A stretch of DNA of 63,228 bases, the filler included. It is 5 parts of 5 records of this genome, joined end to end, with 100 filler letters (N's around TTAATTAATTAA, not from the genome) between each part and the next. Parts side by side here need not be neighbours in the genome. Positions count along the whole stretch, not along the records: positions 21,925 to 34,450 come from DRR378314_2255; 4 more parts are not named here. One strand, 5' to 3'. The notes beneath the pieces are model-generated. The model was not told where the DNA came from and did no database searches. It saw only the letters and a program-made list of their open reading frames with translations. Within the stretch, counting starts at the first letter, position 1. Every line of letters begins with the position of its first letter. Below are positions 28,511 through 31,989 of this stretch, piece by piece. A program made the translations under genes and the position numbers.

Positions 28511-31500
28511 ATGGCGCTTCGCTCACACGAGAAAACCTGTTCGGTTTTAGTGACAGGCGGGACTGGGTTTGTGGCCCCGCACGTGCTTCGCGCACTGAGC
28601 GGTCCTGGTCGCGAGCTGTACTTCACCTTTTCGTCGACCAAGCCAACTCGGCCGCTCCTTTTGCTTGGGCGCGCGCGAAAGTGCGATCTTTCAGATCCAA
28701 ATGCTGTACAATCGCTAATAGATACCATCAATCCAGATGTTGTTGTACACTGTGCAGCGCTTACGAACACAAAGGTTCGTTTGTTTTGAACGTCTGTTGC
28801 CAAATCCAATGCGTTGGCGAAGCTGTCGCAGTGAGCTTGGCAGCGCTAGTCCGTTTTTCGCCACCCGCCTCCGCCCGGCCACTGTCTGTCTCGCATAGCA
28901 TGCGATGTGTTTAACTTTCTATATATATATTGTTGGAGTGCATCACTGTGGATTCGTCGTCAGCCATACTCGGTCGAACCTGCTGCGCCTTGACACCGCA
29001 CACGCGAAGTCGTCCACTTGGCGGTGGTTTCGCGCGCCGCACCGCACAGGACTTGTCACATTTGCAACCCGCCTCCCTCGTGCGCGTTCACACGTATTCC
29101 CCTCTTCTGCAGATTTGCGAAAATGATCCATCTGCAGCGACTTCTGCCAATCTGATTGCGACGTGGAATATTCTCCGAGCAATGCCCAACGTACGCTTGT
29201 ACATGGCGTAAGCGCGCTACCTATGCACGTGCGTGCTCCCACGTCGCTGTTGCGCACCGCGCTGGCAACGCTGCTCTTCCGCCACGATGCAACTGCGCCG
29301 TGTGTAAAGGAATTCTGATCGCAGTGCGATGTCATTTTAATACGTGTTCTACTGTTTTGTGTGTGACAGCGCAAAGCGCGCTGCTACGCGCCCGCGCACG
29401 TGTGCATTCGCACAGACGTAGCGCTTGCGCTTGTTCCCGTCGCTGACTGATCTCATTGCGCGGATGAACCCCCGAATCATTGTAGCGTGGACTCTTTGTT
29501 CTCTTTTCAACGGACTGGGTATTTGACGGGGAGAATGCCCCCTATGATGAAACGCAGACGATTCGCATCCCACGCGACCTTGTGGAGCCGCTCGACGGCG
29601 TGCCGGAATTGGTAGAGCACCTTGGCCCGTACGAGCTCACGCCGCGAGGCGAGCGCCTGTCCCTCCACCCGTACGGCGCAACGAAAGCCGCTGCAGAATA
29701 CGTTGCAGCCCTGTGGAGCTTGCAGTATCCACAGCGATCTGCTGCTGTGCTGCGCTGCTCTCTGGGTATGTTGCTGACCGAAAACAGGCGCACAGGCATC
29801 TTTCCTTGTTCTCTGCCAGGTACCATACTCCGCGCGGTGCCTTTCCTTAGGAGTCTGCTGCAGTGTTTCGAATCGCGTGCATACACGTTGTACGGCAAAG
29901 GTTGCTGCCAGATCGCCTCCCAGGCGTGTTCCCTGTGGCTTCTCGTGTTCATCTCAGCATAATTTCGTTTACCTTGTCCTCCTATATTACCCAGTGTACG
30001 GACCGCGTGCATATGTCGATGCGAAAGGGTCATTTCTGCAGTGGATGTCAGCCGAGCTGCACAAGCGCGATGCTGCGAAGCGCCAAGGAGAGAGCACCGA
30101 GCCCTTTGACCTGTTGAGCGACGAGGTGCGAACTCCGATATACGTGGGCGATGTGTCGCGCGCGGTCGCGCGTCTGGTTTCTCTCTACGAGGCAGATTTC
30201 AATGCAACAGCGGGTTTCGAGCTGTATCACATGGGTGGCGCGGAGAGGCTTTCCCGCGTTGCGATGGGAAACGCGATATGCAGCGCTTGCTCGTTGGACG
30301 AATCGGTCGTGAAGCCTGTGCGCCTCGCCGACGTGCCGTGGGGACGAGGCCGGCCGCGCGATCTTTCGTTAGCCAGTAGACAGTCGCAGATTTCACTCGA
30401 TACAACGTTTACAACATTTGTGCATGGTGTCAGAATGGCACTCACCGACTTTGTGGCAACTGTTGGCTCGAGCGATGTCGATATTGCGCTGGAGACCTAC
30501 CGCGACGAACGCGACATTCCGGACCTGGACGCTCTTCTCGCTGCTGATCTCTCGGAGCCGTACTCGATATACACGTATCGATACTTCTTGGATGACTGGC
30601 CGCATTTGTGCATGTTTGCAGTCGATAGGTGTGTAGCACCGTTTGCGCCTGCCATTTTGTGTAGTGACTCACACTTGCTTCGACGGTGAAACGCACAGAT
30701 TTCCGCACTCGGCGCGGCTTCGTGCGCAGCTCTGCATCTGCAGCTGTCGTTCCTCGATTAGGTGCAGCGCTGGAGCAGGCAGTCTTGCAAGTCACTCCAA
30801 GAGAGTAGCGCTTTCTTGAGGAACGGCAGTGCAGTATTGGATTGTGCCACAATGGGTTTCGCTGATGCTCTGGCAGTCCTTCCCGCGGGCGCTGATCTGG
30901 CTCGGCTTTCTCGGGGTGGCATAGGTTGTATCGACGGGAGCGCGTTCGAATCGCCTGCGCGCGTTCGTTTGCCGCCCGTCCGCTGGCTCACCGGTTTTAT
31001 CCAAACCTCTTTTCCAATGCAATTGCAATTCGACTCTGGGTACTGGACTGGCTGTTCGTGCAGGAAAGCGGGTAATCACAGAGTTGGAGTAATTGTGTGC
31101 CGAATCCTCGAGCGAGGTGATGAGCGGTCCGGGTACATTGCAATGCTGGCGGTGCTGCCAAGGTGCGCCAACGCGTGTGCGTTCCATCCTCCAGATCGGC
31201 TGCTAAATGGCTACGCACGCCCGCGAATGAAGCTTCCGCGTCTCTCATTTCTGCCGTCTCTGTTATTTCACCGATTCTTCCTATTCACTTCATCACTGCA
31301 TGCAGATATCGAAGGCAGGGTATAGCGCGCAAGCTCGTTGAAGAGGCGATTGCACGCATGCGGCGCGAATCTGCTGCAAAGGTACGGAATGACGCACTGG
31401 CAGCGCACAAAATACCGCCGTCGTCCGCGAATTTTGATGCTAGCATCGCTATCACCGCTGCGAGGAAATGCAGTGCATATGGGACTCGCGTCGACGCCGC

Positions 31501-31989
31501 ATCAGTCACAATTGACACTGCTGTAACGTTTGGCTTCGCTGCCATGTGCTTTTATTTTGCGGGAAAGATTTCACTCGAGACCGAGTCGTCGAATGCGGCT
31601 GCATTGTCGCTGTACGAGAGATTGGGCTTTGTGCGCGAGCAGCTTCTGCAGCGGTACTATTTGAACCACGGGTGCGTTGCTTCGACATGGCAGTGCGTGC
31701 TGCGCGTTGTGCGTGCTTGTTTCGCGTATGAAGCCGGTTCTCTGCCATCCCTCCTTTCTTTTGCTGTCACATCGTTTGAATCTCGGTTGATCCTTCAACG
31801 GGAGAGGTATCCAGTTTCGTAAACGCGTCAGTTTCCTCGGCGGAACAACTCCGCACTGTGCCGCTAACCAATTTCGCTGCGGCACCGCTGCTGCTTGCGC
31901 TGTACTCCTCGCTTTCCGCACGGTGCGCTCTGCCCTGCCATCGAATGAACGCTAGGGACGCTTTTCGGCTGATGCTCCCCCTTTCTTGA
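28511..31989 (+). CDS. 8-exon fusion gene: RmlD/MAT2B-like extended SDR + N-terminal acetyltransferase Naa30/Mak3 (about 522 aa)
   Basis: Exons 28511-28774, 29113-29190, 29486-29765, 29995-30628, 31064-31162, 31306-31381, 31568-31671, 31956-31989, all GT..AG and phase-consistent. SDR motifs VLVTGGTGFVA, HCAALT, STDWVFDG, YGATK, DEVRTP, RPRDLSL. Naa30 motifs [58 protein letters not shown]. Confidence 0.85.

Follow-up and report, generated by a model that had tools for sequence, protein, structure and literature searches.

A putative Naa30-type N-terminal acetyltransferase encoded in one reading frame with a MAT2B-like short-chain dehydrogenase/reductase domain

NatC, with its catalytic subunit Naa30 (Mak3), acetylates Met-hydrophobic N-termini and uses acetyl-CoA as donor. 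Described here is a gene located at positions 28511-31989 of a 63,228-nucleotide stretch of joined contigs, the whole of which is termed the window, whose predicted product carries a Naa30 domain at its C-terminal end. This domain resembles the solved Naa30 proteins of yeast (6yga), human (7mx2) and S. pombe (7l1k) in being a GNAT domain of ~155 aa, with the residues D-L-S-E-P-Y-S in the alpha1-alpha2 region and an RxxGxA motif. The protein differs from them in that a folded short-chain dehydrogenase/reductase (SDR) domain of ~356 aa lies N-terminal to the GNAT domain and is joined to it by a linker of ~12 aa. Animal NAA30 is comparable inasmuch as its C-terminal GNAT domain is preceded by 150-300 extra residues, but that extension is of low complexity and has no Pfam domain, whereas the present one is a complete enzyme-type domain. 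As animal NAA30 carries such long extensions, N-terminal additions to Naa30 are evidently tolerated.

The closest solved relative of the SDR subfamily is MAT2B (2ydx, 4ndn). MAT2B docks on MAT2A via a free C-terminal tail, and no complex forms once the 15 terminal residues are deleted (PMC4107924). NADP binding and a role as a sensor have been proposed for MAT2B, as dinucleotide sensing has been for HSCARG and NmrA; a GxRR loop gives MAT2B its preference for NADP, and the underlying function and mechanism were called unknown in the 2013 structure paper (PMC3793261). In common with MAT2B, the SDR half of the protein is of the extended SDR type, falls in the RmlD_sub_bind family and contains both the GxxGxx[G/A] motif and the Ser...YxxxK triad. 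Unlike MAT2B, whose C-terminal tail is free, the SDR end continues here through the linker into Naa30. With RmlD the protein shares membership of RmlD_sub_bind in Pfam, as well as the motifs S-T-D-x-V-F-D-G and Y-G-x-x-K; it differs in scoring far under the RmlD equivalog cut-off, and the bacterial homologues examined adjoin MazG, with no rml genes in the six ORF sets scanned. The SDR half is most closely related to bacterial SDR family oxidoreductases of ~300 aa (e.g. P0030, P0299 and P0018), which are 30-35% identical to it over the full length; unlike the SDR half they stand alone, and they are without two insertions, of 31 aa and 10 aa, that are found here.

The gene has eight exons on the + strand (Table 1), and every intron begins with GT and ends with AG. 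The introns measure 338, 295, 229, 435, 143, 186 and 284 nt. When rebuilt by script, the spliced coding sequence is 1569 nt long, i.e. 522 codons followed by TGA. An in-frame TGA at 28496-28498 precedes the ATG by 15 nt, and the N-terminus of the protein is thus complete. The locus is a genuine eukaryotic gene, predicted to encode one polypeptide of 522 aa and about 57 kDa whose two folded domains both look functional. An earlier reading of the letters alone, the sequence-only reading, had proposed eight GT-AG exons and a product of about 522 aa, and had quoted motifs for both halves; the rebuilt model agrees, and all of the motifs are present in its translation.

A transcript-like contig matches the model in full. 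This contig, of 1811 nt and from the public run X1, lies on 28447-32167 with 0 differences, and its length is accounted for by 64 nt of 5' untranslated region (UTR), the 1569 nt of coding sequence and 178 nt of 3' UTR. It bridges all seven predicted introns at the junctions of the model, when ambiguity of the cut is allowed for, and skips GT..AG stretches of exactly the seven intron lengths given above; support for splicing is drawn from these joints. A sequence free of introns points to spliced RNA, or with lower probability to a retrocopy. X1, the single public run found to match, contains 40% of the words sampled from 28400-32100, a share that fits the spliced form, as the exons and the covered UTR amount to roughly half of that interval.

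The join between the two domains lies inside exon 4, which is open in one frame from the SDR through the linker into the Naa30 signature. Similarity to SDR proteins extends to about residue 356, and similarity to Naa30 begins at about residue 368. As had been claimed, the junction thus falls within a single uninterrupted exon, and the fusion is independent of the choice of splice sites. The X1 contig piece at 29994-30626 spans this exon with 0 differences; the contig is continuous across 30400-30628 and the exon junctions, where the mapping of RNA reads had been suggested, and there is no stop, frameshift or mismatch at 30440-30500, where such a defect would have undone the proposal. 

One locus might still yield two proteins. 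In addition to the fusion or in its place, initiation at the internal Met355, through leaky scanning or from a promoter within exon 4, would produce a stand-alone Naa30 of 168 aa, and the long open reading frame (ORF) would be a by-product of abutting genes. A protein of 168 aa is of ordinary Naa30 size (the yeast chain has 159 aa and the human construct 152 aa), and Met355 sits 13 residues before the Naa30 homology. It is also the only internal Met able to give a complete Naa30, as a start at the next one in frame (414) would remove the alpha1-alpha2 substrate-binding motif. Against this, neither a stop codon nor intergenic DNA separates the two halves, Met355 is part of the last conserved helix of the SDR, and the one form of transcript observed spans the whole gene (28447-32167), though contigs cannot reveal internal starts. 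None of the observations favours internal initiation. Two separate products are a distinctly improbable outcome, and a single fused polypeptide is the preferred reading.

A misassembly, or a chimera of a bacterial SDR gene and a eukaryotic Naa30 gene, also has to be considered, given that three of the five contigs of the window are bacterial and that the proteins most similar to the SDR half are bacterial or without a name. The SDR half is, however, cut by three spliceosomal GT..AG introns, all of which are removed in the X1 contig, and both halves contain such introns. The two halves have a similar G+C content at third codon positions (0.593 versus 0.620), and the junction exon is covered without mismatch. 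In addition, 28400-32100 was searched against G001, the nearest bacterial genome compared (3.6 Mb), which has words in common with the window, and no match was found. An artefact of this kind is very improbable. The SDR half may have been gained by horizontal transfer, an origin that was considered because its named relatives are all bacterial.

The C-terminal 155 residues are assigned to an orthodox Naa30 (Mak3) GNAT domain. Family scores here and below were obtained exon by exon or from local blastp of the joined halves. When the final ~45 residues of exon 4 (exon residues 167-210) were compared with the PDB, all three matches were to Naa30: human 7mx2 (E 2.9e-11), yeast 6yga (4.7e-9) and S. 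pombe 7l1k (1.4e-5). Exon 5 shows weak matches to Naa30 chains 7l1k (E 0.21) and 7mx2 (0.37) over the G-Y-I-A-M-L-A segment. The top PDB match of this exon, PsbY (E 7.5e-4), covers a short repeat and was dismissed as a chance similarity. Exon 6 matches Pfam Acetyltransf_1 at 4.2e-4 and 21.0 bits (cut-off 20.7). With exon 7 the top three PDB matches are all Naa30 chains (1.4e-7, 3e-7 and 1.3e-6), RimI and other GNATs follow at E values no better than 1.5e-3, and chains of Naa50 and Naa10 at no better than 0.4. The joined GNAT half is 48-56% identical to Naa30 proteins over ~150 aa, with E values down to 3e-53; the aligned proteins carry PF00583, and the nearest named ones, at about this same identity, are from Piptocephalis and Anaeramoeba.

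All of the active-site and substrate-binding residues of yeast that were checked are retained. In the PDB alignments identical counterparts are present for all of yeast L27, S28, E29, Y31, Y80, E118, E120, Y130 and Y145, those of exon 7 being read from the alignment to positions 115-147 of 6yga_A. In yeast NatC, Glu29, Glu118 or Tyr130 mutants retain ≤10% of wild-type kcat, and L27A is the most severe (part of PMC7608589). The acetyl-CoA motif, described as RxxGxG/A (part of PMC4748286), occurs in exon 6 as R-R-Q-G-I-A. Acetyltransferase activity of the GNAT half is very likely, judging from these residues.

The SDR half is best classed as a putative extended SDR of the RmlD_sub_bind family that belongs to a MAT2B-like subfamily, and it is not demonstrably an RmlD. 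Exon 1 matches Pfam Epimerase (1.3e-11, 44.8 bits) and RmlD_sub_bind (3.6e-10, 39.8 bits; cut-off 27). Exon 3 reaches RmlD_sub_bind at E 0.021 and 14.4 bits. In exon 4, RmlD_sub_bind is matched at 4.5e-11 and 42.8 bits (cut-off 27) by exon residues 30-151, which correspond to profile positions 166-284 of 287. The Pfam pair that had been expected, RmlD_sub_bind and Acetyltransf_1, is hence found above cut-off within single exons (1, 4 and 6). The joined half (aa 1-360) aligns over ~330-350 positions with the ~300-aa SDR proteins, E 1e-43 to 4e-49. It has the Rossmann motif and the Ser/Tyr/Lys triad (YxxxK), and, of 27 columns without variation among the ten nearest full-length homologues, it retains 26, including G16, G19, S122, D124, Y177 and K181; the exception is position 248, where Leu replaces Phe. 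Both insertions lie in the X1 transcript contig and are absent from all ten homologues. The longer, of 31 aa, is at ~29546-29638 (aa 135-165), directly before YxxxK, and the one of 10 aa is at ~30039-30068 (aa 223-232).

The sequence-only reading had called this half RmlD/MAT2B-like; a MAT2B-like subfamily is favoured, and a true RmlD is not supported. A profile of the ten homologues, when compared with the PDB, finds human MAT2B first (E 6e-62, 212.6 bits), while the best chain named dTDP-4-dehydrorhamnose reductase is found at E 1.6e-39 and 139 bits. All four sequences matched by the SDR part of exon 4 in the PDB are MAT2B, at a weak E of 0.25. Against the NCBIfam rmlD equivalog TIGR01214, which has a cut-off of 224, the exons of the gene attain 36.6, 15.9 and 27.4 bits when scored exon by exon, and the nearest homologues 161.1, 128.1 and 186.5 bits, all of which are below the cut-off.

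The fusion product is probably a Naa30-type N-terminal acetyltransferase with an NAD(P)(H)-binding SDR appendage, though this reading is short of firm. For the SDR half taken by itself, the motifs make NAD(P) binding likely. A complete extended SDR stands where other Naa30 proteins have an N-terminal leader that is short or disordered. The SDR would keep the function of its stand-alone relatives, perhaps that of a reductase or of dinucleotide sensing. It could be an active NAD(P)H-dependent reductase carried along by the acetyltransferase, or else a module that senses dinucleotides, as has been proposed for MAT2B. That it functions as its relatives do is probable because the invariant residues of the subfamily are nearly all kept. 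In yeast, Naa30 from Arabidopsis can stand in for the three NatC subunits together (part of PMC7608589); this independence, together with the animal extensions, suggests that an N-terminal appendage is compatible with Naa30 function.

A number of points weigh against this interpretation. The type of run X1, recorded as 'RNA?', is a guess, and the run possibly comes from the same project as the assembly; its contig, moreover, is unable to exclude extra, shorter transcripts. Exons 2 (26 aa) and 5 have no Pfam match of their own, and exon 7 taken alone, at 16.4 bits, is under the Acetyltransf_1 cut-off. Taken by itself, exon 1 is closer to generic sugar-nucleotide SDRs and to RmlD (RmlD E 0.0056 versus MAT2B 0.08), and the placement with MAT2B as opposed to RmlD comes mainly from the homologue profile and not from the gene's own sequence. 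The 31-aa insertion might disturb the SDR active site. Finally, the positions that align with the GxRR loop of MAT2B read F-S-S-T, and the loop is not conserved; Lys and Arg residues near these positions leave NADP binding possible.

As to what the two domains might do together, the short linker makes coupling plausible, and regulatory coupling is nonetheless doubtful. Regulation of SAM synthetase (S-adenosylmethionine synthetase) in the manner of MAT2B is unlikely for the SDR half because the end that would correspond to the docking tail is occupied here by Naa30. Whether the fusion is the organism's only Naa30 is evenly balanced. The boldest proposal, that a sparsely sampled eukaryotic lineage has its sole Naa30 in constant fusion with a MAT2B-like SDR that binds NADP(H), and that co-translational acetylation by NatC is gated by the NADP(H)/redox state or by a sugar-nucleotide ligand, is improbable.

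The same architecture was sought in other proteins. An exhaustive phmmer search of exon 4 against 1.84 billion representatives produced 1876 matches at E 1e-3 or better, with a best score of 66 bits. Among the best 150 of these, each has one matched stretch; 14 fall within the SDR part (query residues 1-150), and the remainder belong to the Naa30 part and end at 205-210. Any genuine fused relative would be expected to match both parts and rank first, and there is accordingly none in this listing. Eight of the Naa30-part matches were scanned with Pfam, six of which had stretches that begin well inside the SDR part; they showed GNAT, LEDGF plus GNAT or nothing, and RmlD_sub_bind in none. Several proteins that appeared to span the junction (P0095, P0094, P0069, P0079, P0048 and P0158) were rejected, as they are animal Naa30 proteins with low-complexity N-terminal extensions, one of them LEDGF plus GNAT, and have no RmlD_sub_bind. 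P0002, with 98% query cover and 23% identity, is likewise an animal-type Naa30 with an extension and no RmlD_sub_bind.

Other searches gave the same picture. In a word-index search, the longer proteins (369-2000 aa) provided 14 matches, all via the Naa30 part; at near lengths, all named or Pfam-annotated matches among the best 120 of 224 are Naa30/GNAT. A profile of the SDR family, applied to proteins of 14-559 aa, gave 4362 matches, the best 120 of which are all 289-339 aa in length and have no GNAT family, though fused forms of lower rank could hide. Scans of metagenome and prokaryote-genome contigs found 2 and 5 loci, respectively, with the SDR part only. Of 375 fetched proteins, 245 match the GNAT half, 130 the SDR half and 0 both. 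No identical protein is present in the collections searched; the organism, and probably its close kin, is therefore absent from them, and this limits the weight of the negative results. The literature searched for a fusion of Naa30 or an N-terminal acetyltransferase with RmlD or MAT2B holds no relevant description. In the main text of PMC4748286, insofar as it was covered and its supplements aside, 'fusion' and 'additional domain' do not appear and 'fused' denotes a tag. Thus the combination of SDR and Naa30 was not found in any other protein or paper searched, in keeping with the view of the sequence-only reading that the architecture is undescribed.

This restricted distribution bears on another explanation, that the gene is a neofunctionalised paralogue. 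A canonical Naa30 would then serve NatC with Naa35 and Naa38, and the fusion would be an extra copy that, for example, acts off the ribosome or acetylates what the SDR makes or a protein with which it interacts. Lineage-specific fusions often arise from duplicates, and an architecture not found elsewhere is what is expected of a young, lineage-restricted gene. Naa30-type enzymes also need not be bound to NatC, as plant Naa30 can act without Naa35 (part of PMC7608589). The GNAT half, however, is not divergent: it retains all checked active-site residues and its 48-56% identity is to the Naa30 of distant eukaryotes, and it therefore resembles an essential single-copy orthologue. A paralogue with a new role is possible but rather unlikely, and the reading of the gene as a Naa30-type acetyltransferase with an SDR appendage is retained.

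Table 1. Coordinates of the fusion gene, of the window spacers and of loci with a MazG gene next to a bacterial SDR homologue
Feature	Position	Strand	Remarks
5' UTR (to X1 contig start)	28447-28510	+	64 nt; no ATG within
Exon 1, aa 1-88	28511-28774	+	SDR Rossmann N-terminus, TGxxGxxA motif; Pfam Epimerase and RmlD_sub_bind
Exon 2, aa 89-114	29113-29190	+	SDR; in phase; aligns with CE..P..A segment of homologues; both junctions in contig
Exon 3, aa 115-208	29486-29765	+	SDR S-T-D and Y-G-A-T-K motifs with 31-aa insertion between; contiguous in contig
Exon 4, aa 208-419	29995-30628	+	SDR C-terminal part to ~aa 356, ~12-aa linker, putative Naa30 alpha1-alpha2 from ~aa 368
Exon 5, aa 419-452	31064-31162	+	GNAT beta strands; Tyr equivalent to yeast Tyr80
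Exon 6, aa 452-477	31306-31381	+	Acetyl-CoA motif R-R-Q-G-I-A; Pfam Acetyltransf_1
Exon 7, aa 478-512	31568-31671	+	Equivalents of yeast Glu118, Glu120, Tyr130 and Tyr145
Exon 8, aa 512-522 and TGA stop	31956-31989	+	Junction 31671/31956 present in contig
3' UTR (to X1 contig end)	31990-32167	+	178 nt
Spacers between contigs	21825-21924, 34451-34550, 52390-52489, 58100-58199		
Loci with a MazG nucleotide pyrophosphohydrolase gene directly before the SDR gene	L001:45-671, L003:4673-5479, L004:4690-5481, L005:2899-3687, L006:4641-5447		

The named relatives of the SDR half are bacterial 'SDR family oxidoreductase' proteins from Planctomycetota, Bdellovibrionota, Poribacteria and Leptolyngbya/Nodosilinea, and many others are without a name. 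The genomic neighbourhoods of these relatives were sampled at six bacterial or metagenomic loci, where 26 of 50 ORFs were scanned. The SDR gene directly follows a MazG gene at five of the six (L001 and L003-L006), and a PTPS-family gene occupies the MazG position at the other (L007); no rml genes were found among the scanned ORFs. At L003-L006 a conserved ORF of ~215-220 aa without a Pfam match is situated upstream on the opposite strand. MazG and the MAT2B-like SDR may constitute an uncharacterised conserved operon. A rhamnose context with RmlA/B/C is also not evident near the fusion gene, as no rml family was found among 135 other ORFs of contigs 21925-34450 and 52490-58099.

The window consists of five contigs placed end to end and joined by four spacers, each of 44 N, TTAATTAATTAA and 44 N. 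Contigs 1-21824, 34551-52389 and 58200-63228 have long uninterrupted bacterial genes, among them those for TonB-dependent receptors, PmbA/TldD, COX2, ABC transporters, GGDEF and FecCD. The fusion gene is on contig 21925-34450, which contains introns and is eukaryotic. The bacterial genes on three contigs and the introns on this one signify that both bacterial and eukaryotic DNA went into the assembly. The 135 other ORFs are stop-to-stop ORFs of at least 70 aa, and only two of them have a Pfam match, at 32839-33159 and 33029-33673, in both cases 2_5_RNA_ligase2. Contig 52490-58099 has no Pfam match at E 1e-3 or better in any of its 59 such ORFs.

The two matching ORFs represent a downstream neighbour of the fusion gene at 32839-33673 (+), a gene of the 2H-phosphoesterase / 2'-5' RNA ligase superfamily that extends across two frames; the split between frames is probably due to an intron. 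Two further contigs of run X1, of 691 and 730 nt, flank the fusion gene at 28000-28241 and 32265-32586. The right-hand one passes into unlike sequence at 32586, at a point that resembles a splice site. The left-hand one stops ~205 nt before the first base of the fusion transcript, and the left-hand neighbour gene and the fusion gene may share a short promoter region. Contig 21925-34450 begins with a (CGG)n run (21925-21953) and ends with a (GATTAT)n run (34424-34450), and simple repeats probably broke the assembly at both ends.

Lineage-specific domain fusions are common in protists. To our knowledge, the regulation of NAT (N-terminal acetyltransferase) catalytic subunits is largely unknown, and we know of no N-terminal acetyltransferase with a built-in metabolic sensor. 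These subunits are highly conserved and little diversified across eukaryotes (part of PMC4748286). The gene combines two well-known families, so far in one eukaryote, and is unusual for a NAT catalytic subunit. Its setting also serves as a warning, since contigs of eukaryotic and of bacterial origin occur together in this assembly. The fusion offers a second context for the clade of MAT2B-like SDRs. Should the gene prove to be the sole Naa30 and should gating be true, it would supply a Rosetta-stone hint that links MAT2B-type SDRs and NatC elsewhere. If it is instead a lineage-specific accident of neighbouring genes, it would still be a clean, transcript-verified entry for catalogues of gene fusions. 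In either case, a natural and apparently expressed Naa30 with an intact NAD(P)-type domain is a ready construct with which to ask whether a metabolite controls NatC.

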